The position numbers were made by a program, and so were the translations under genes. This document shows positions 12,448-57,798 of a DNA stretch of 64,000 nt, piece by piece. Positions within the stretch are counted from its first letter, which is position 1; each line of letters starts with the position of its first letter. The stretch lies in the IMG/VR virus record IMGVR_UViG_3300046791_000298, positions 1-64,000 of that record; one strand, given 5' to 3'. Under the pieces are notes generated by a model. That model saw only the letters and a list, made by a program, of their open reading frames with translations, had not been told where the DNA came from and searched no databases. The stretch comes from a virus.

Positions 12448-12555
12448 ATGAAAGAGCCAGAGAATAACTATCAAGCAAGCGGATGGATATGGGTTGCCCT
12501 CATCTTCGCTATCATTATTATTTTTCTATCAATATTTTTAGACTCCCTCAAATGA
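12448..12555 (+). CDS. Small single-pass membrane protein (35 aa)
   Basis: Hand translation MKEPENNYQASGWIWVALIFAIIIIFLSIFLDSLK; ATGA overlap with next gene. Confidence 0.55.
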   Translation: MKEPENNYQASGWIWVALIFAIIIIFLSIFLDSLK

Positions 12556-13130
12556 AATTAGAAATAGCTAGGCGCTTAGTCACTGAGATCACCAGAAAAG
12601 TCCACCCCAATTGCGATCGTTTTGAAATCGCGGGCTCCATACGAAGGTGTAAGCCTGACGTTAAGGATATTGAGGTCGTGTGCATTCCGAAAACATTCAC
12701 ATCGTCTCAGGCTCTCCTGGGCGGTAAAGATGTAACAGTTAGATCAGATGGATTTATTAGAACTGTTAACCAGTTCGTTAAGATCAAGGGCGATGCTCGT
12801 GAGGGGAAATACATGCAGCGTCAGTACGAACTCGACAGAGAAGACTTCCCTGGCATCACGGACATTCGTAAAATCAATATCGATATCTTCGTTGCCACCA
12901 TCAGTAATTGGGGTATTCAATTCTTAACCAGAACCGGTGATAGTGATTTCTCCCGGTTATTCTTAGGGACAATTTTACCCAAGCACGGATATAAGGCTCA
13001 TGACGGGTACGTGTGGCTTGGTAATGATGTCATTAATCTTCCCGAAGAGCGTGATGCTTTTGCGCTCGTGAAAATTCCATTCATTGAGCCACAATTCAGA
13101 AATGCTACTGCACTAAATCAATATTTATGA
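12552..13130 (+). CDS. Minimal family X DNA polymerase/nucleotidyltransferase
   Basis: IAGSIRR..DVKDIEVV, IDIF, RTGDSDF, EERDAFALVKIPFIEPQFR; no lyase or PHP domain. Confidence 0.8.
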   Translation: MKLEIARRLVTEITRKVHPNCDRFEIAGSIRRCKPDVKDIEVVCIPKTFTSSQALLGGKDVTVRSDGFIRTVNQFVKIKGDAREGKYMQRQYELDREDFPGITDIRKINIDIFVATISNWGIQFLTRTGDSDFSRLFLGTILPKHGYKAHDGYVWLGNDVINLPEERDAFALVKIPFIEPQFRNATALNQYL

Positions 13131-14635: not shown

Positions 14636-16603
14636 ATGGATATCGTCTCAGCCCTCCAGGAACTAGGTATTGATACCAAACAATATGCTTCAGGCACCCA
14701 CTACGTTCAATGCCCACAAAATGAATGCAGAGACCGTAAAAAGAAGAATGCTAAGTCCCTTCTGATCCGCCTGGATGACGGCTATTATGAGTGCATGCAT
14801 TGTCACTGGAAAGGATTTGCGAAAGGTGGCGGCAATAGTCAGGCACCGCAACGCATAGCCCCTCCGCCAAAGAAAGCACAGAAATTCCTTGATGAACCGG
14901 TGTTCAACTGGATATTCCCTGATACCACGATCGAGCCTAAGCCAGCGGATCCTACTCGGCTACAAGGAAAGTACACAATCACATTCTATTATCGGAATGC
15001 AAAAGGACGGCTCACCTCAGCAAAGCGCATGCTTTACAATTTCGAGGGCCGCGAGATGCGAAGGGATAAAGAATTTAATCCCATGTTCACAACGACACGC
15101 GATGAAGGATACTATCCGTGTCTTTTTTATGAGAAGCATCTAACTGAATTTCCGAATGCCACTGTCGTCCTTGTCGAGTCTGAGAAGACCGCATGCATGC
15201 TCACGCATAAATTCAAAAATCATCTCAATGAATTTATCTACCTAGCCACCGGTGGGGCTAATGGTCTCAACGATGAGAAGGTTCCGGTTTTAAAGAACCG
15301 CGATATCTGGATTGCTTATGATTGCGATAATGGAGATGTGCAGCCTGACGGCTCGGTAAAAAATCCTCGCGGCCGGGAAGGAGCTCAAGGGGCACAATCA
15401 AAACTTGAGAAGATGTCCAACTCAAGGGTGATAGATATCGACCCGAGCAAAACAGACGGCACTGATTTAGCCGACATGCTCCGCGAGATCGACATAGAGT
15501 TTATCCGTAATCTCCCAGAGCGCGTACCCCAGGCGGTCCGTGACATGTGGGCTGACGTCATCATGGATACCGAGCCTCCAGCTGAGGTGCCAATTATCCA
15601 AAGAGATGGTATCACTTACGCAACACTCGGTAACAATAGCCTTGTAACTGGTAAAAAGAAATCCAGAAAAACTCTCTTCCTCATCATGATGGTCCAGTGG
15701 TTTTTAGAAAATAATTCTGAGAACTCCATCCTTCTCTTCGACACTGAGCAGGGGAAATCGCATGTGTGGAAGATCAGAAAAAAAATTCATCAGATTACAG
15801 GTAAGTGGGTCCCTGTTTTCTTCCTGCGCGGTCAGTCATACCAGGAGCGCCAGGCAATCATCCAAAAGACTGTTCAGTACTGGCCCAATAAATTAAAGTG
15901 GATAGTGATAGATGGTATCCGTGACTTACTCTCCAACATTAATGACCCGGATCAGTGTACTGACCTAGTAACCTGGGTAGAAAAAATAAATGTTCGCTAT
16001 AACATTCACATCACAAACGTCCTTCACTTAAATAAAACAGACAACAACGCACGCGGTCATATCGGCACCGAACTCTCTAATAAGGCAGAGATGAATTTTG
16101 AACTTGAGAAGGATGAGAAGACAGATGTCACAATCGTAAAGTGCGAGAGTTCGCGCGACAAACCCTTCGAGACTTTCGCCTTCACGCACGGCCAAGATGA
16201 TCTGCCTGAGCTTGTACACGTTCCGATCAAAGGAGTTGTATTGCCTGACGCTGAACGAAAGAAGCGCCTTAAAGAAATTTTTGAAAATGATATTATCTCA
16301 TACGGTCAATTCCTAGAAGGGGTCCGCGAGCAATTCGACTGCGGAGAGAAGAAAGCGAAGTCTCTCATTGCTGAGTTTAAGCGTATCAACTGGGTCATCA
16401 AAGGCGGTGGCGATGGTGCAAAAGGAGCGAACTACAAACTAACGCTCAGTGATAACGGTCATGAACCAAAGGCGGTAATGGAGGTGGTAAAAAAAGAACC
16501 TATACAGCCGGACCTGTTCATTGAGTCAAGAAATAAATTGCATGAGAAAGAAGAGCCCGCTCCACCGCCAGCTCTGGCCGACAATCCTGATCTCCCTTTT
16601 TAA
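14636..16603 (+). CDS. Primase-helicase (Zn finger, TOPRIM, RepA/AAA_25-type helicase)
   Basis: CPQNEC...CMHC, VLVESEK, YDCD, DLAD, GKKKSRKT, FDTEQ, IVIDG, VLHLNK, RGHIGTEL. Confidence 0.85.
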   Translation: MDIVSALQELGIDTKQYASGTHYVQCPQNECRDRKKKNAKSLLIRLDDGYYECMHCHWKGFAKGGGNSQAPQRIAPPPKKAQKFLDEPVFNWIFPDTTIEPKPADPTRLQGKYTITFYYRNAKGRLTSAKRMLYNFEGREMRRDKEFNPMFTTTRDEGYYPCLFYEKHLTEFPNATVVLVESEKTACMLTHKFKNHLNEFIYLATGGANGLNDEKVPVLKNRDIWIAYDCDNGDVQPDGSVKNPRGREGAQGAQSKLEKMSNSRVIDIDPSKTDGTDLADMLREIDIEFIRNLPERVPQAVRDMWADVIMDTEPPAEVPIIQRDGITYATLGNNSLVTGKKKSRKTLFLIMMVQWFLENNSENSILLFDTEQGKSHVWKIRKKIHQITGKWVPVFFLRGQSYQERQAIIQKTVQYWPNKLKWIVIDGIRDLLSNINDPDQCTDLVTWVEKINVRYNIHITNVLHLNKTDNNARGHIGTELSNKAEMNFELEKDEKTDVTIVKCESSRDKPFETFAFTHGQDDLPELVHVPIKGVVLPDAERKKRLKEIFENDIISYGQFLEGVREQFDCGEKKAKSLIAEFKRINWVIKGGGDGAKGANYKLTLSDNGHEPKAVMEVVKKEPIQPDLFIESRNKLHEKEEPAPPPALADNPDLPF

Positions 16604-16607
16604 ATTT

Positions 16608-17897
16608 ATGGCATACAATGTACTTTGTGGCGATGCGTTCATCAAACTGAAAGAGTTTCAGGACAATTATTTTGATTCGTGTATCCTAGATGGACCTTAT
16701 GGACTTCGGTTTATGGGAAAAACATGGGACACTTTCGATATAAAATCCAAAGGTGAGCAGCGCGATTCTTATGCTGTAGGAGAAAAGAGATTAGCAAAAG
16801 GACGAACTACTACTGGGTTTGGTAACTCTATTGAGGCTGGTAAGTATGATCAATCAAGAGAAGCTAATTTAAATTTTCAACGGTGGTTTGAGCAACTTGC
16901 TCGTGAGATCATCCGAGTACTCAAACCAGGTGCCTATTTCCTGAGCTTCGGAGGAACTCGTACCTATCATCGGATGATCTGCGGTATCGAGGATGCTGGT
17001 TTTGAAATTCGCGACTGCATCATGTGGACATTTGGCTCTGGATTCCCGAAATCTTACAACCTTACTGACGATTTGGGAACAGCGCTTAAGCCAGCATGGG
17101 AGCCAATCTGTATGGCGCGTAAGCCGTTGGATGGAACAATTGAGCAGAACTTCAAAAAATATGGAACAGGAGTTTTAAACATCGGAGCCACTCGTATTCC
17201 TGGTGAACCATGGACATTTGGAACACAAACTGATATAAAAGGTGGTAATTACGGTACGAACAGACCTTCAAACGGTAATATTTTAGCAAAAAACGTAACA
17301 GGAGGAGAGGATGGCCGTTGGCCAGCCAACCTTATCCATGACGGATCCGATGAGGTCATACAAGAATTCCCTGATGCGCCTGGGCAGATGGCAGATGTGA
17401 GAGGGACTGAGCCCTCAATGGCTAACAGTGGAACAACTTCAATGGGGAAAATGAATCGTGTTGGTTCACGACCAAAACGTGCTGATTCTAACAAATCAGG
17501 AGCCCGATTTTTCTACTGTGCCAAAACTTCGCATAGTGATCGCAACGAAGGACTAGAGTCCTGGCAAAAGAAGACGCTCAACTGGTCATCTGGCACCCAA
17601 AATCCAGGTTCATTTCAATCGCCAAATACCGATCGGACACACCAAAACAATCATCCGACCGTAAAGCCAACTAAACTCATGCGATATCTCGCGGTTCTTA
17701 TAACTCCTCCAGCTGGGAAAATTATTGATCCGTGTTGCGGCTCGGGCTCAACCGGAAAAGGAGGAATTATTGAAGGCTTCGATGTAACTTTAATCGATCA
17801 AGAACAGCAATGGGTGGATGTTGCGATTGCTCGGTGTGCACATGCTACAAAAGTTCGTCTCAAACTTGAGAGGACAGGTAAGCAATTGAGTTTATAA
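16608..17897 (+). CDS. DNA amino (N6-A/N4-C) methyltransferase, beta class
   Basis: DGPYG (motif IV variant), RVLKPGAY, GSGFPKS, GRWPANL, HPTVKP, DPCCGSGST. Confidence 0.88.
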   Translation: MAYNVLCGDAFIKLKEFQDNYFDSCILDGPYGLRFMGKTWDTFDIKSKGEQRDSYAVGEKRLAKGRTTTGFGNSIEAGKYDQSREANLNFQRWFEQLAREIIRVLKPGAYFLSFGGTRTYHRMICGIEDAGFEIRDCIMWTFGSGFPKSYNLTDDLGTALKPAWEPICMARKPLDGTIEQNFKKYGTGVLNIGATRIPGEPWTFGTQTDIKGGNYGTNRPSNGNILAKNVTGGEDGRWPANLIHDGSDEVIQEFPDAPGQMADVRGTEPSMANSGTTSMGKMNRVGSRPKRADSNKSGARFFYCAKTSHSDRNEGLESWQKKTLNWSSGTQNPGSFQSPNTDRTHQNNHPTVKPTKLMRYLAVLITPPAGKIIDPCCGSGSTGKGGIIEGFDVTLIDQEQQWVDVAIARCAHATKVRLKLERTGKQLSL

Positions 17898-17898
17898 T

Positions 17899-17914
17899 TG
17901 TTCCACGTGAAATA
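17899..17914. promoter_or_regulatory. parS-like site
   Basis: TGTTCCACGTGAAATA, one mismatch to TGTTNCACGTGAAACA; partial copy TGTTCCACG at 17918-17926; intergenic between convergent genes. Confidence 0.7.
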
Positions 17915-17928
17915 AAATGTTCCACGAA

Positions 17929-18123
17929 TTAGTTCTTCAAAAATCGTTCTTCTAGTCGCCTTAAATCACCCATTGTTGCTGGTCGCCTATCCATCTCGGC
18001 TTGATATTTTTTACGCTGATCTTCATCTTCAATTTTACGGATAGCTTCCAAAAGTTCCTTCCTAGATACCTTCTTCGGATTTGGATTGATGTAGTCTGGT
18101 CTCATACAAGAGTATGTTACCAA
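17929..18123 (-). CDS. Hypothetical protein
   Basis: Short charged ORF; start uncertain. Confidence 0.45.
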   Translation of the reverse strand: MVTYSCMRPDYINPNPKKVSRKELLEAIRKIEDEDQRKKYQAEMDRRPATMGDLRRLEERFLKN

Positions 18124-18145
18124 CTCGGGGGAAATCGCGGGTAGA

Positions 18146-18304
18146 TCACTTCTTTTTTTTCTTCCGAATTGGAATCTTTCTCACGTTCTTCTCTGGAATT
18201 TTTATGAGTGGTGTTTTAAACATCCGGCTTAAACCACATGTGCATGCTTCATCTCCGCAGTAAATAAGGCACATTTTCCCGGGTTCATACAATTCGATTA
18301 CCAT
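18146..18304 (-). CDS. Small Cys-rich basic protein (52 aa)
   Basis: Hand translation MVIELYEPGKMCLIYCGDEACTCGLSRMF...RKKKKK. Confidence 0.4.
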   Translation of the reverse strand: MVIELYEPGKMCLIYCGDEACTCGLSRMFKTPLIKIPEKNVRKIPIRKKKKK

Positions 18305-18348
18305 AGGCTTTTACTACCTATACCAAGAAGTGTGACAAAAATCAGTTT

Positions 18349-18687
18349 CTATGCCTCAGCGCCAGGAATACCAGAAGGAGCATCTCGAATTTCTTCGTCT
18401 CGATTTTCGGCTTCTCCTTGGTCTTCATGAGGGAAATTACTCGCAATTAACCGGCTAACCAAACTCCCCTGACACTGATGCATGTGGATGGCCCGCTCGA
18501 TGATCGGAGGTATTCGCACGTTCCACATTCTCTCACCCTCACTCACATCAAAGGGGAATTTCACTAATTTTTTCTTGCATCTCGCGCACGAGAGCGTGCA
18601 CTTCTCCCATTCCTCACCCGGATAATCAAACGGGCTTTTCGGTTGGATCCTACTACTCTCCGACTCCTGGACCGTCCTGTTGCGCAC
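18349..18687 (-). CDS. Hypothetical protein, possible Zn-binding
   Basis: CARC...HMHQC. Confidence 0.55.
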   Translation of the reverse strand: MRNRTVQESESSRIQPKSPFDYPGEEWEKCTLSCARCKKKLVKFPFDVSEGERMWNVRIPPIIERAIHMHQCQGSLVSRLIASNFPHEDQGEAENRDEEIRDAPSGIPGAEA

Positions 18688-18688
18688 C

Positions 18689-19204
18689 TTACATAATATA
18701 AAACTTCACCGGATCATGCACGGAAAAGTACTCCCGTTCGTCAACTCCGCCCCGTCCTGGGTTCACCCGAAACAGCTCATTCTTCTCATTTCTCCAATAG
18801 AACATCAGCCAGGGAGATGGTCCTCCACCGATATCCCAGCCGCATTTCGAGTTATGACAGTGATAAATCCGAGGGGTTATAATCAGCCCACTGTGATGCG
18901 GCCGCGCGAAATTCAGCGTCCCGCACCCGTCACAGATCCACTTTAGATTCTCGATCGGCTGTTGTTTATTGAATTCCCGATACTCGTTCCGCTCCTCGAT
19001 CTGCTCCCTGGAATAGTTATCAGCTACTCTTATTGGTGGATTTGATTGTATTGCTGCCATCATAAGTGCCTGTTGTATTGTAAAATTCCCATGATTATCA
19101 GGGTTATGCTTTCCAATCTGCCGCTTCTGCGGGTCAGACAGCCAGGGGTTCGCCTCAGCCATTTTGCTCAAATAGTTTCTCCCATGTTGCCAAGAACACA
19201 TCAA
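18689..19204 (-). CDS. Zn-ribbon hypothetical protein; likely start about 19162
   Basis: WICDGCG...CHNSKC. Confidence 0.6.
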   Translation of the reverse strand: MMCSWQHGRNYLSKMAEANPWLSDPQKRQIGKHNPDNHGNFTIQQALMMAAIQSNPPIRVADNYSREQIEERNEYREFNKQQPIENLKWICDGCGTLNFARPHHSGLIITPRIYHCHNSKCGWDIGGGPSPWLMFYWRNEKNELFRVNPGRGGVDEREYFSVHDPVKFYIM

Positions 19205-19487
19205 TCTCCTTTTGCCTGGCGATCGTGTTATTCCGTATCGCCCGCAAAAACTTCACTGCCTTCCCATAAGACACCGTGATCTCGAATGCCTCCCCGCGCT
19301 TAATCACAGAACCTCCCCACTTCTTTCTTATCACCTCAAGCGCATACTCATGTCCTCTCCTGATCCGCACTATCGGGACCTCCTTCTTATTCTTCCCCAC
19401 AAGGATCACTCCTATCGTCCCCCCAGAGTCGAGCATCCCCCCGAAATACGATAGCGCAACCTTCTCTTTTATCTCCTCGTCTGTCAT
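19155..19487 (-). CDS. Single-motif LAGLIDADG-like protein, probably degenerate
   Basis: LSYFGGMLDSGGTIGV compared with YLAGFIDGDGSI; IRKKWGGSV. Confidence 0.55.
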   Translation of the reverse strand: MTDEEIKEKVALSYFGGMLDSGGTIGVILVGKNKKEVPIVRIRRGHEYALEVIRKKWGGSVIKRGEAFEITVSYGKAVKFLRAIRNNTIARQKEIDVFLATWEKLFEQNG

Positions 19488-19563
19488 CTTTTAGTACTGT
19501 TCCAACATGTGACAAAGGTGCATTTCTTCCCTGTACCACACAAGCAAAATATTACTTATTTAG

Positions 19564-19711
19564 TACTGGTGCAAAGTGGCTCTGGTATCCGGTGCAGTGG
19601 GGTGTATACACACCCCCCCACTGCCCCAGTTACCGGTATAAACCAGCGTTTGGGGTAACACCACTGGAACCCGTCACTGCACCACTGCACCACTCATGTT
19701 CTACACCAGTA
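19564..19711. repeat. Nested inverted and direct repeats of a CACTGCAC-type motif
   Basis: TACTGGTG/CACCAGTA outer pair; GGTGCAGTGG (19591) with CCACTGCACC (19682); internal GCAGTGGGGTGT...ACACCCCCCCACTGC hairpin. Confidence 0.65.
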
Positions 19712-19758
19712 TGTATTTACAGTTGACTTTCTCCTCTCTTTTCCCTTCCTTCGTCCCC

Positions 19759-19926
19759 ATGTCGCACCTGGACAAACTCATCAAAAGAAACCCCGCTGTA
19801 CTCGATCTCGTCCGTCGATTCGACCTGGGTGAATTCAAAACTACTCCCCTCAATCTCTCAATCTCAGAACAAGTATCCCAACGCGTCCGGAAGCTCATCC
19901 TTAAACTCCAGACCCCTCAAGCATGA
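19759..19926 (+). CDS. Hypothetical protein
   Basis: MSHLDKLIKRNP..., C-terminal part of track ORF 19696..19926. Confidence 0.4.
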   Translation: MSHLDKLIKRNPAVLDLVRRFDLGEFKTTPLNLSISEQVSQRVRKLILKLQTPQA

Positions 19927-20081
19927 CACCCCTCACACACGCCACTGCGCCAACCGGTATAAAGCCCCCCGTCACCGGCTCAACTGGGAAATCAAAATCC
20001 CGCGACCGAGGGGGTCTGGTTTTGACTTTTCAGTTTTCAAAGCATATAAAGGCCGTTTCCAAGCCAAATTCGCACAAACTA

Positions 20082-20109
20082 TTGTTTAATAATTTGTATT
20101 ATGTTAAGT
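20082..20109. other. dif-like XerC/XerD recombination site
   Basis: TTGTTTAATAA-TTTGTA-TTATGTTAAGT: 11-6-11 layout; right arm one mismatch from canonical XerD arm TTATGTTAAAT; left arm ends ATAA. Confidence 0.75.
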
Positions 20110-20240
20110 AGAACACAGATAGACACAAGCTGTCACCCGTCAGGGGCTGAATGCGACAATCATTGTATCAACACGCGTGCGGATAAACCAAGTTGGCACG
20201 TGGGTGAGGTGCGAGGGTTCAATAACCAAATCGAAGTTCG

Positions 20241-20759
20241 GTGAATGGGATAAACATATTTACGTTTTCTATGTTTGAAAGGCGTTCGGCTAAGGTCGTG
20301 ACGTATCAGTATAGGATAAATCGCTTTGAGTTGTGGATGCTCATGGGGCTTGTTGCGGTGTTGGCATTACAGGGTAGGAAGGCGATAAGTCGGGATGAAT
20401 GTTTTAATCTCATTACGGCTAATTTGCGGGCACGTATAAAGATGCGAACGTATTGGTATGGGTTGCAGGTCAAAGGTTGTTTGGTAGAGTTTAAAAGGCC
20501 ACAATACCCGAATGCATCGAGTTGGGGTATTACTCCACTAGGCTGGCAGGTGTGCCAGGTGTTCGAGAAAGAGATGCAAAGGTTAGAATTGGCATATCCA
20601 AAGCGAAAGAGAGTTGAACCAATTGAGGTCGTGATAAAGGACGGTGACGCGGCACCCAAGGGTTACAGTTACGCGAAGGAACCAATACAAAGGCGCAAGG
20701 AATACATTGAGCACATTGATTTGGAGGATAAGGCGAAGCGTCACCGGTCGAACAACTAA
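20241..20759 (+). CDS. Hypothetical protein, possible winged-HTH
   Basis: LQVKGCLVE...WGITPLG resembles a wHTH wing; start may be 20271. Confidence 0.55.
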   Translation: MNGINIFTFSMFERRSAKVVTYQYRINRFELWMLMGLVAVLALQGRKAISRDECFNLITANLRARIKMRTYWYGLQVKGCLVEFKRPQYPNASSWGITPLGWQVCQVFEKEMQRLELAYPKRKRVEPIEVVIKDGDAAPKGYSYAKEPIQRRKEYIEHIDLEDKAKRHRSNN

Positions 20760-56247: not shown

Positions 56248-57798
56248 CTAAACTCCTACAGGCTTTCTGTCTGTATAACTCTGAATATTTGTACAATCAG
56301 TAATTGTTCCATTGAATGTATTTATTGTTCTCCCTCCACTAGCATCTATTCTTGTAAAAGAAGCTAATAAGTTACAATTATTATTGCCATTATTTGGCAT
56401 TAAAATGTTGGCTTTCGTGCTTGCATGAGAGGAGGTGAAAAGCACTATTGATCCTGTCCTTGATTTAAAGCAACTGAAAGATGCCGTAATTGTGTAGGTA
56501 ACAGATTCTTTAAAATTCACAGTTATTGCCGTTGTTACTACACAAGTAACAGTTGCGGCTGTGAACCCAGATGAACCAGCAAAAGTCGTTGTTGCTCCAT
56601 TACCAATAGTTAAAGTAGCCGAAATAGATAACAATGAATTAATTGTATATGTTTTCCCTGTCGTATTTGTCAATGTTACATTGTTCCAAGTTATACCATT
56701 GGTATTCAGAGTGCAGGTTCCTAAAAGTGAAAGTGTTGAAGATGTGGTCGTAATCGTTCCGCTGGTGTAAGTCAGTGTGCCGGTATTGTACAGAACAGTA
56801 CCGCTAATTGTAATAGCCCCCCCAACTAAAGTTAGGTTATTTGAAACGCCACCTCCTCCCCCAGTATCAGACCATGTTCCTGAATCCAGTTCAATATCCG
56901 CAGTCCCAGTCATATTGACACCACAGGTAATCCCATTGCAAAATACTTTTTCACTTGCTGTTTTGTTAATAACAAGACCAGTAGTACCAACAACGAAAGA
57001 TGACAATGTTGCACCAACATGCAAATCTTCTGTTAATGTAATGGATGCAGATAAATTTTGACCACCTTCAATATTATTAAAGGTGACAGCATTTGCTTTG
57101 ATTGTAACCGAACCATTAATTGTCATTTTTCCAGTAACCGTAACCGTCCCTGAAACGTACTCCATCAAGGCTCCTCCATACACCGTATCCCCGATAGAAC
57201 TATTACCATCAAGATATAATGTCGTAGTTAAACTTCCTGTCCATGTTCCACCCTTTAAATACACTAAAGCAGAGCCACTCAAACCTTCAATTAACGGCAA
57301 TCCACTTACATTTAATTTCTCTGCCGTTGTTTTATTTACCGCATTCGTACCCGTTCCTGCTGATGTAGAGAATGTCCCGCTAACGGTAAAATCACCGACA
57401 AGCGTAATTGTTTTATTAACATTGCCGAGTAGGTTTATATTATTCGGCCATGTTTTACCACCACTTGTAACCGTACCTGTTGCTGTAAGAACTATCCTTG
57501 AGCTTCCCGCAATAGTAAACCCAGTGTGCATCGTCCAATTACCGCCTATCCGGAGTTCAGCATTATGAGTTATGGTTTGCGTGTACCCTGCCGTAATGTT
57601 CAAAGAGAGTACATCAGATATTGCATTGACGGTAGCATTAGAATTTCCCAATACGCCACCACCATCAAATGTAACATCATCCGTAGAAACTGGTACAGAG
57701 GCATTGCCTACACCACCGGAAGTTGCAGACCAATTAGTTGGCACTGTTGCATTCCAGTTTGCTGATGACCCGCCTCCAACCCAAAATCTAGCTGCCAT
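56248..57798 (-). CDS. Thr/Gly/Ser-rich beta-solenoid fibre/spike protein, paralog B
   Basis: MAARFWVGGG..NWNAT..NWS.TSGG.GNASVP..DDVTFDG; repeated INKT.E and GTW units. Confidence 0.75.
   Translation of the reverse strand: MAARFWVGGGSSANWNATVPTNWSATSGGVGNASVPVSTDDVTFDGGGVLGNSNATVNAISDVLSLNITAGYTQTITHNAELRIGGNWTMHTGFTIAGSSRIVLTATGTVTSGGKTWPNNINLLGNVNKTITLVGDFTVSGTFSTSAGTGTNAVNKTTAEKLNVSGLPLIEGLSGSALVYLKGGTWTGSLTTTLYLDGNSSIGDTVYGGALMEYVSGTVTVTGKMTINGSVTIKANAVTFNNIEGGQNLSASITLTEDLHVGATLSSFVVGTTGLVINKTASEKVFCNGITCGVNMTGTADIELDSGTWSDTGGGGGVSNNLTLVGGAITISGTVLYNTGTLTYTSGTITTTSSTLSLLGTCTLNTNGITWNNVTLTNTTGKTYTINSLLSISATLTIGNGATTTFAGSSGFTAATVTCVVTTAITVNFKESVTYTITASFSCFKSRTGSIVLFTSSHASTKANILMPNNGNNNCNLLASFTRIDASGGRTINTFNGTITDCTNIQSYTDRKPVGV

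Follow-up and report, generated by a model that had tools for sequence, protein, structure and literature searches.

The sequence analysed here suggests that the DNA of a soil phage is probably kept in dividing cells by enzymes borrowed from its bacterial host. The stretch that we call the window (64,000 nucleotides in all) is most of a complete phage genome of 76,829 bp with terminal repeats, which originates from a soil metagenome. A parS-like and a dif-like site in the window resemble those of the probable host family, such sites are found in related phages, and no recombinase or partition gene was recognised in the complete phage genome; together, these results indicate that host enzymes are probably borrowed. 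Whether both sites work as mimics of host dif and parS, through which host proteins would handle the phage DNA in a non-lytic phase, is in our view a nearly even question.

Relatives of the phage were co-binned with Cyclobacteriaceae (Bacteroidota) MAGs, and one of them is a whole genome of 77,957 bp. Based on this binning, the host of the phage is probably a member of the Cyclobacteriaceae. The presence of stand-alone contigs of relatives inside host MAG bins is only suggestive of a carrier replicon. The closest relatives include P0001 to P0005, with primases 77 to 90% identical to that of the phage, and also P0124, P0127, and P0128. Our comparison of site conservation covers distant relatives, namely, G004:C497, G005 to G009 (including G008), G408, and L054. 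Single-protein scans of IMG/VR returned no close relative, and the relatives in JGI metagenomes are at most 58% identical. Judged by the portal protein, the nearest cultured relatives are Cellulophaga phages of 71 to 76 kb, which are described as lytic. The primase-helicase is the sole replication-type gene recognised in the phage (Pfam and PHROG), and RecT- and exonuclease-type recombination genes are present as well.

As of 2011, no studies of chromosome dimer resolution existed for this phylum (PMC3091885); for the Cyclobacteriaceae, our analysis supplies working consensus sequences of both parS and dif. The parS derived here is TGTTCCACGTGAAAC[A/T], which occurs in clusters of one to three near the GC-skew origin, and dif is [T/C]ATAA TTTA[T/C]A TTATGTTAA[G/A]T, located at the skew terminus. 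This dif was found in 50 of 61 genomes, mostly as one copy and in three genomes as two; the reversed control gave no matches. The separation of parS and dif amounts to 42 to 48% of the circle in four complete chromosomes, and in G024 each of them falls on one of the GC-skew switches, of which there are two. Genes for ParB, XerD, and a XerC-like paralogue are present in these hosts; in G001, they lie at C18:73487-73999, C6:6579-7448, and C13:172610-173479, respectively. The earlier note had taken the phage sites for host chromosome-maintenance sites, and both indeed match the ones derived for the probable host family.

The near-consensus parS that had been claimed at 17899 was confirmed. The palindrome TGTTCCACGTGAAATA occupies positions 17899 to 17914, in a 31-bp gap between two convergent genes, and differs by 1 mismatch from TGTTNCACGTGAAACA, the 16-bp chromosomal-type parS. 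It agrees at 15 of 16 bases with TGTTCCACGTGAAACA, the parS of the host-family genomes G001, G002, and G057. Sites with at most one mismatch are expected 0.004 to 0.009 times per 76.7 kb, the length of such a genome (analytic, based on genome base composition). The sole mismatch, G to A, falls on the specificity base of the right half-site, which is the base contacted by Arg173 of ParB (PMC7383237), so the affinity for ParB may be reduced. The left half-site, TGTTCCACG, is repeated at 17918 to 17926 on the plus strand, 19 bp after the first copy; this 9-mer occurs twice in the genome, both times here, versus an expectation of 0.4. The possibility that the gap is a terminator was rejected, as its folding z is about 0. 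The exact 16-mer is present in 50 IMG/VR contigs, which by estimate is about the chance level, and no dif-like site was found near it in any of them. On the strength of its sequence, the site at 17899 to 17914 is not a chance match but a real candidate for a chromosomal-type parS.

An 11-6-11 dif-like site had been placed at 20082, and it is present there, at 20082 to 20109 on the plus strand, with the XerC arm TTGTTTAATAA, the centre TTTGTA, and the XerD arm TTATGTTAAGT. The XerD arm is identical at 11 of 11 bases to the dif of G001 and G002 and fits the family consensus, and the two bases beyond the site (AG) likewise agree with the dif of host G001. The centre matches the host TTTATA at 5 of 6 bases, and its length and spacing are right. 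The XerC arm agrees at 7 of 11 bases with the host GAGTTATATAA, with the inner ATAA present, and at 9 of 11 with TTGTTATATAA, a type of arm common on viral contigs. As a whole, the site agrees at 26 of 28 bases with TTGTTATATAA-TTTGTA-TTATGTTAAGT, a form common on viral contigs. The analytic expectation from base composition, allowing at most two mismatches to the host-family 22-mer, is 0.001 sites per 76.7 kb, and the joint expectation for both sites is about 1e-6 or less. The dif-like site is thus no chance match and can be considered a predicted Xer core site. When it was used as a short BLAST query against isolated phages, only gut microviruses and chance-level matches were returned, and a site in Flavobacterium phage 23T, found with the other common Bacteroidota-type host dif as the query, was weak and unconvincing. 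A promoter-like element (TTGACT-17 nt-TATAAA) was read by eye at 20022 to 20050 on the plus strand, in a block that is conserved with G004:C497 in the alignment. A promoter-consensus scan did not call this element, which is uncertain for a Bacteroidota host. If it is used, the dif-like site would fall in the leader of the MarR-like operon.

The idea that the two sites bracket a repeat-rich noncoding segment has to be abandoned. Positions 17929 to 19487 are coding DNA and not spacer, with a leftward cassette of five minus-strand ORFs (17929-18123, 18146-18304, 18349-18687, 18689-19204, and 19155-19487); only 19488 to 20240 is largely non-coding, and the repeats between the sites are short two-copy matches, as chance gives. 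The GC content of the cassette is 0.48, versus 0.42 genome-wide. None of its ORFs matches Pfam or PHROG, and its 171-amino-acid ORF has homologues with 56 to 60% identity on two genome-length relatives (contigs of 78,593 and 76,160 bp). For the ORF at 18689 to 19204, the gene call begins at 19162, and a LAGLIDADG-like motif was seen by eye in the 110-amino-acid ORF. On the left side, a plus-strand gene for an N6/N4 DNA methyltransferase (16521 to 17897; Pfam PF01555, E 2e-18; phrog_67) has its stop codon at 17895 to 17897, immediately left of the parS-like site; the protein has no ParB-like N-terminal domain. Within the largely non-coding part, an inverted repeat at 19584 to 19634 forms a hairpin (-35.8 kcal/mol, z -2.8, with 0 of 200 shuffles as good) that may be part of an origin or a regulatory element. 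A small ORF is located at 19759 to 19926 on the plus strand (about 55 amino acids from an internal Met), and by eye a similar ORF occupies the same place in the relative G004:C497. Rfam and tRNA scans gave no matches. The GC-skew switch near 20 kb was rejected as evidence for an origin or terminus, as it tracks the change of gene strand, like elsewhere in the genome. The first gene of the rightward early operon, at 20241 to 20759 on the plus strand (gene call from 20271), encodes a MarR-fold winged-helix regulator, the model of which (pLDDT 74) gave Foldseek matches to MepR and MarR (E 5e-4). This protein has homologues at 64 to 73% identity, and its family could not be extended in IMG/VR.

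That the sites are kept in relatives while the flanks diverge turned out to be true for the dif-like site, which recurs in three distant relatives (G008, G408, and L054). For the parS-like site, the picture is mixed. G008, whose structural proteins are 25 to 56% identical to those of the phage, has CTGTTATATAA TTTGTA TTATGTTAAGT between unrelated flanks, and G408 has GTGTTATATAA TTTGTA TTATGTTAAAT. In both, the MarR-like gene again begins right beside the site, which is inverted relative to that of the phage; this inversion argues against a promoter or operator role. In L054, the site is located 2.2 kb downstream of the primase gene, and its strand agrees with that in the phage. The TTTGTA centre is common to this phage, G008, and G408 and differs from the host centre TTTAYA, and no conservation between the phages is seen in the flank beside the XerC arm. 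The 19-mer with the TTTGTA centre was found in 1 of 401 Bacteroidota genomes (G756), where the site is poor and no phage genes are nearby. G004:C497, G005, G006, G007, and G009 all miss the dif-like site, which is therefore not essential to the phage family. At least 110 IMG/VR contigs, some of them longer than 180 kb, carry Bacteroidota-type dif sites, and one 188-kb dif-bearing record with the TTTGTA centre has no integrase, which suggests that the dif part may be widespread.

The parS-like site was not found in G004:C497 (search with at most two mismatches) or in G005 to G009, including G008 (at most three mismatches), except for one site with two mismatches in G007. A further 80 dif-bearing viral loci all lack a parS-like site. 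G408 has a perfect 14-bp parS core 50 bp from its dif-like site, within the 5' end of the MarR-like ORF, and G800 has TGTTTCACATGAAACA 188 bp from its dif-like site; for the 31 loci scanned, we estimate that chance would give about 1e-3 pairs of this kind.

The earlier note had recognised no recombinase, ParA, or ParB in 64 kb, and the full-genome search extends this absence to all 76,829 bp. Neither a tyrosine (PF00589) nor a serine (PF00239) recombinase is encoded, and neither ParA nor ParB, with PF02195 and PF13614 both absent. PF00589 is absent from the relatives too, and the ParB domain PF02195 is absent from G005 to G009, the five that were searched. DUF3653 and a XafT-like activator were not found in the phage genome, and no lysogeny genes were recognised there besides the MarR-like regulator. 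As its own partition and replication-initiation genes were not found, the phage is not a member of the classical phage-plasmids. None of the 72,556 plasmid records in PLSDB matched the DNA at 17.8 to 20.3 kb, the MarR-like protein, or the portal protein. The portal protein search of 401 Cyclobacteriaceae genomes gave matches in 4 and revealed no integrated relative; just one of these is close, a 78-kb contig that stands alone, and identity is 21 to 26% for the remaining three.

The proposal that host-type cis sites act without proteins of the phage's own is strengthened by the host match, the recurrence of the dif-like site, and the co-occurrence of the two sites, and weakened by the loss of the noncoding bracket, by the failure to find parS in six relatives, and by the mismatch at its specificity base. 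In the explanation that we prefer, host ParB would load at 17899 to 17926 and, together with host ParA and possibly SMC, would segregate the phage DNA circle as if it were a small chromosome. Host XerC and XerD would act at 20082 to 20109, where the favoured role would be the resolution of phage multimers, as at the plasmid sites cer and psi. This would make the phage a prophage of the plasmid type, with both partition and resolution outsourced. We infer the binding of host proteins, a carrier or lysogenic state, and resolution over integration. Known plasmid prophages normally encode their own Par and Xer genes (PMC8026635), and partition and resolution functions are therefore to be expected in such phages. 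It is possible but doubtful that the phage is a phage-plasmid acting in cis only, a mini-chromosome of low copy number that encodes no maintenance proteins and that host ParABS segregates and XerCD/FtsK keeps monomeric. Several observations speak for an episome: the contigs of relatives attain genome length (72.5 to 78.6 kb) and none exceeds it, the sole close portal match is a free contig, and the centre TTTGTA is not that of the host. Other observations speak against it, as virion DNA also yields stand-alone contigs, no lysogeny gene beyond the MarR-like regulator was recognised, no relative turned up among the plasmid records, the cultured Cellulophaga relatives are described as lytic, each of the two sites was not found in several relatives, parS has a mismatch, and the XerC arm matches at only 7 of 11 bases.

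Instead of resolving multimers, host XerCD might use the dif-like site as an attP for insertion at chromosomal dif, as in IMEX elements, which would make this a temperate tailed phage without an integrase, in which parS aids the free circle or is incidental. The lack of a recombinase and the host-identical XerD arm fit such integration, and known IMEX attP sites typically have, as here, a centre that agrees with the host only partially. This route of integration has been proposed for Bacteroidetes microviruses and DJR phages (PMC3091885; PMC12715192), and some Cyclobacteriaceae have two dif copies, both close to a contig end in G038, as expected for dif insertions. Still, integration appears rather unlikely, given that no relative is integrated in the 401 family genomes, that no contig of a relative is longer than the phage genome, that a XafT-like activator is lacking, and that a parS brought into the terminus region would be odd cargo. 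No alternative joint at 20093 to 20098 was seen in the single run with the phage either, a search of contigs from the likely source sample that is uninformative either way. The sites might also serve lytic growth, with XerCD/FtsK unlinking or resolving circular products and parS recruiting ParB and SMC to position or compact the DNA, or both might be decoys that disturb host segregation. The whole family is without recombinases, the nearest cultured relatives are described as lytic, the sites are dispensable in several relatives, and the RecT- and exonuclease-type genes would create multimers. However, phages that package concatemers do not need monomers, a single parS copy is a weak decoy, and FtsK activates XerD at the division septum, which is easier to reconcile with a carrier cell that divides than with one near lysis, so we regard a lytic role as decidedly unlikely.

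Selection might act on the dif-like site only, the parS-like palindrome being a product of chance or bound by a protein of the phage, for instance, the MarR-like regulator. This would agree with the failure to find the palindrome in six relatives, its distance of 2.2 kb from the dif-like site, and the mismatch at its specificity base; the many motifs sought for the earlier note also raise the odds that one of them would match, and the palindrome of G408, in the 5' end of the MarR-like ORF, might be an autoregulatory operator. We consider it very unlikely nonetheless, as so few parS-like sites are expected per genome, parS-type palindromes lie within 200 bp of dif in two other viral contigs, and the palindrome of the phage lies between two gene ends, away from a promoter. 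Moreover, the MarR-like proteins of the phage and G408 are only 16% identical, which makes a shared operator equal to host parS unlikely. Finally, both matches could be coincidence or ordinary AT-rich regulatory DNA unrelated to host ParB and XerCD, since the leader in which the dif-like site is located is AT-rich and preceded by a promoter-like element, and since a generic E. coli-based dif pattern with three mismatches performs at chance level in the window. The very low joint expectation, the match to the site of the host family and not just to that of E. coli, and the conservation in relatives, in either orientation and between unrelated flanks, make coincidence extremely improbable.

The host-maintained episome that we favour has parallels in known systems. 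Like cer (ColE1) and psi (pSC101), the phage site is a dif-like core with a centre unlike that of chromosomal dif, on a replicon without a recombinase that, in the case of the phage, would be extrachromosomal. The presumed job of cer and psi is to keep the replicon monomeric, and we presume the same for the phage. Both cer and psi depend on some 200 bp of accessory DNA to which PepA binds together with ArgR or ArcA; no such sequence was identified in the phage, and their carriers are plasmids, whereas the carrier here is a 77-kb tailed Bacteroidota phage. The cer core site is also more diverged from dif, whereas the XerD arm of the phage is host-perfect. Like the phage, IMEX elements (CTXphi, VGJphi, TLCphi, the gonococcal island, the microvirus proviruses of PMC3091885, and the DJR vibriophages of PMC12715192) have no integrase and carry a look-alike of host dif. 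The IMEX phages described are small, non-tailed, and defined by dif integration, whereas this phage is tailed, has no integrated copy that we could find, lacks a XafT-like gene, and has a chromosomal-type parS nearby. The plasmid prophages P1, N15, D6, c-st, and Bacillus B83 (PMC8026635) are tailed and low-copy and need partition and dimer resolution, as envisaged for the phage, but they encode ParA/ParB, ParM/RHH, or TubZ/TubR and usually their own Cre or Xer with private sites, whereas the phage encodes none of these and has host-type sites. SGI1 relies on the parABS that its IncC helper plasmid encodes (PMC10954446). As proposed for the phage, it has only parS in cis and depends on foreign ParA/ParB, but it pirates a plasmid system and not a chromosomal one. 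In the literature, we found no paper on a natural phage using chromosomal ParABS. Lin and Grossman reportedly showed in 1998 that, in Bacillus subtilis, an unstable plasmid is maintained more stably when it carries a chromosomal parS; theirs was an engineered construct, unlike a natural phage.

If our explanation is true, the phage would exemplify, in nature, the exploitation of chromosomal ParABS by a virus. Gene-based lifestyle prediction looks at integrase, ParAB, and repressors, and it would score a phage that persists by means of sites only as strictly lytic. Such a mode of lysogeny would be invisible to these predictors, and temperate or carrier-state behaviour would then be under-counted among the Bacteroidota phages of soil and other environments.

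Based on its sequence, the phage carries a parS-like and a dif-like site only in cis, without the proteins that act on them. The parS-like site, TGTTCCACGTGAAATA (17899-17914), has one mismatch with the general parS consensus and lies in a 31-bp gap flanked by two stop codons, one ending a methyltransferase gene (17895-17897) and the other a leftward ORF (17929-17931). Its left half-site TGTTCCACG recurs 19 bp further; the genome has no third copy of this 9-mer. The dif-like site, TTGTTTAATAA TTTGTA TTATGTTAAGT (20082-20109), has the 11-6-11 arrangement of an XerC arm, a centre, and an XerD arm. Both sites are present as described in the earlier note, and at the base composition of the phage, chance would give only 4-9e-3 parS-like and 1.2e-3 dif-like sites per genome. 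On the minus strand at 18686-18702, where two of the leftward ORFs between the sites meet, the dif-like site has an inverted partial copy, TTTATA TTATGTAAGGT (centre plus XerD arm, without XerC arm), that is probably due to chance. Tyrosine and serine recombinases, ParA, the ParB N-terminal domain, and DUF3653 (XafT-type Xer activator) are absent from the whole phage genome, so the lack of integrase and ParAB noted for the 64-kb window extends to all 76,829 bp. A tyrosine recombinase was also absent from nine related or dif-bearing phage records.

The first 127 bp of the 76,829-bp record, of which the window covers bases 1-64000, recur at its end, indicating that the phage genome is complete. 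Its GC content is 41.7%, and it is a tailed phage, with portal and large terminase genes. It was detected in a single run, a soil metagenome from which it probably comes, and its closest cultured kin, based on the portal protein, are Cellulophaga phages of 71-76 kb (20-22% identity). The genome also encodes a primase-helicase, RecT-like and exonuclease genes, two DNA methyltransferases, and GroEL. Among the subset of genes scanned, neither a family A nor a family B DNA polymerase was identified, suggesting that replication probably depends on the host replisome; the sole polymerase-like signal in that subset was a weak match to the polymerase-beta palm and thumb (12483-13130, plus strand, 215 aa).

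The two sites do not enclose the repeat-rich noncoding spacer that had been proposed. Positions 17929-19487 contain five leftward ORFs, one of which (171 aa) has homologues at 56-60% identity on two genome-length relatives. The GC content of this cassette is 0.48 versus 0.42 for the genome, which suggests that it may be an acquired module. Its 110-aa ORF (19155-19487, minus strand) shows a LAGLIDADG-like motif, YFGGMLDSGGTIG, and has no Pfam or PHROG match. The truly intergenic stretch, 19488-20240, contains a strong hairpin (19584-19634), a promoter-like element, and a small ORF that seems to have a counterpart in a relative. Its repeats are unremarkable; ACCGGTATAAA is repeated at 19632 and 19953. 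The hairpin, ~100 nt upstream of the cassette, has 19-bp arms and a very low folding energy (-35.8 kcal/mol, z -2.8); it could be part of an origin or regulatory structure. The GC-skew switch near 20 kb is not special, as it merely tracks the change in gene strand, as elsewhere in the genome.

Homologues of the primase-helicase delimit a phage family of 72-79 kb. Within the species-representative genome set, the contigs that match best have been binned with Cyclobacteriaceae MAGs, and one of them is an entire 77,957-bp phage genome. In these MAGs and in complete Cyclobacteriaceae genomes, parS sites come in clusters of one to three and read TGTTCCACGTGAAAC[A/T] or have the fully symmetric GGAACA form. 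The 22-mer [T/C]ATAA TTTA[T/C]A TTATGTTAA[G/A]T was present in 50 of 61 genomes, single in most and double in three, with zero occurrences in a reversed control. The distance between parS and the 22-mer is 42-48% of the circle in four complete chromosomes. In one host-family genome, G024 (5,487,627 bp), parS (1.754 Mb) falls within the minus-to-plus switch of the GC skew (1.62-1.89 Mb), and the 22-mer (4.405 Mb) within the plus-to-minus switch (4.32-4.59 Mb). This opposite placement and the coincidence with the skew switches indicate that these are the parS and dif of the family. The host genomes encode one ParB, one XerD, and one XerC-like paralogue. Two dif copies are present in G017, G026, and G038; both copies in G038, like the single copies in G064 and G068, lie within ~125 bp of a contig end, a pattern that elements inserted at dif could cause by breaking the assembly. 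Because about half of a phylum-wide Bacteroidota sample has a comparable dif, assignment of the host to the Bacteroidota is firm and to the Cyclobacteriaceae likely.

The phage sites resemble those of the host family. The parS-like site is identical at 15 of 16 positions, with the caveat that its sole mismatch replaces the half-site G that ParB reads via Arg173, one of the two bases separating parS from the Noc site (PMC7383237). Compared with the dif of the host-family genome G001, GAGTTATATAA TTTATA TTATGTTAAGT, the XerD arm and the next two bases are identical, as are 5/6 positions of the centre and 7/11 of the XerC arm.

One relative, G008, has 73,453 bp with terminal repeats and shows synteny with the phage; shared proteins are 25-61% identical (structural proteins, 25-56%). 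Its site, CTGTTATATAA TTTGTA TTATGTTAAGT followed by AG, has flanks unrelated to those of the phage. Another relative, G408 (72.9 kb), carries GTGTTATATAA TTTGTA TTATGTTAAAT, and L054 has a site with a different centre, on the strand also used in the phage and 2.2 kb downstream of the primase gene. The start codon of the homologue of phage gene 20241-20759, whose product is predicted to have a MarR-type winged-helix fold, follows the site by 6-10 nt in G008 and G408. The XerC arm faces this gene in both relatives; in the phage the XerD arm does, ~130-160 nt upstream. Because the orientation varies while site and neighbourhood are kept, a recombination site fits better than a promoter or operator. 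In G004:C497 the homologous leader and gene are present, but the centre and XerD arm are missing, and G005, G006, G007, and G009 have no dif-like site; the site is therefore dispensable. Beyond the XerD arm there are short iteron-like repeats, GGGGTGATTTT three times in G408 and CGTAACC repeats in G008 (loci L280:700-1100 and L283), and both contain a CTGA-N3-TCAG palindrome; these regions may be origins adjacent to the dif-like site.

The TTTGTA centre is common to three of the phages, and as a 19-mer it occurs in one of 401 Bacteroidota genomes, in a poor site. In IMG/VR, 31 contigs have this centre (L253-L283), and the host-type centre of a Bacteroidota-type dif occurs in at least 110 (including L305-L384). 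Several of all these contigs are very large, with records of 188-448 kb among them, and the one checked, G797 (188 kb, 97% complete), has no tyrosine recombinase. Look-alikes of dif may be common in large Bacteroidota phages. In L264 (IMGVR_UViG_3300009551_000045, ~11725) the site directly follows the 3' end of a tRNA-like sequence (GGTTCGAATCC...) and is probably a prophage border or host flank. In the uncultured crAss-like phage cr115_1 (NC_055898.1), 27 nt of an unannotated region (56852-56878) are 89% identical to the dif-like site.

The parS-like site may be coincidental. In relatives, none was found in G004:C497 (<=2 mismatches) or G005-G009 (<=3), except for one 2-mismatch site in G007, which is at chance level. 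However, G408 carries GGTTTCACGTGAAACG, with a perfect 14-bp core, 50 bp from its dif-like site, and the viral contig G800 carries TGTTTCACATGAAACA at 188 bp. By our own estimate, chance would place ~1e-3 sites of such quality within 200 bp of the 31 scanned dif-like sites, and none of 80 loci with the host-type centre has one; the pairing is therefore real but uncommon.

Phages known to exploit host XerCD are small, lack tails, and occur integrated at dif (PMC3091885, PMC12715192). Among plasmid prophages, the known ones encode a partition pair and usually an Xer- or Cre-type recombinase of their own (PMC8026635). The present phage, which is tailed, has cis sites only. No paper was found that reports host-type parS and dif on a tailed phage lacking its own proteins for them. 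Integration at the host dif is a serious rival explanation. Alternatively, the sites may serve lytic replication. No plasmid record is related to the phage, and apart from the MarR-like regulator, no lysogeny gene was recognised in it. An episome is favoured because contigs of relatives reach genome length and are never longer, because no integrated relative was found in 401 Cyclobacteriaceae genomes, because the phage centre differs from that of the host, and because a centromere is useful to a free replicon. We therefore favour an episomal carrier or prophage state maintained by the host, whose ParABS would segregate the circular phage genome and whose XerCD would resolve phage multimers.
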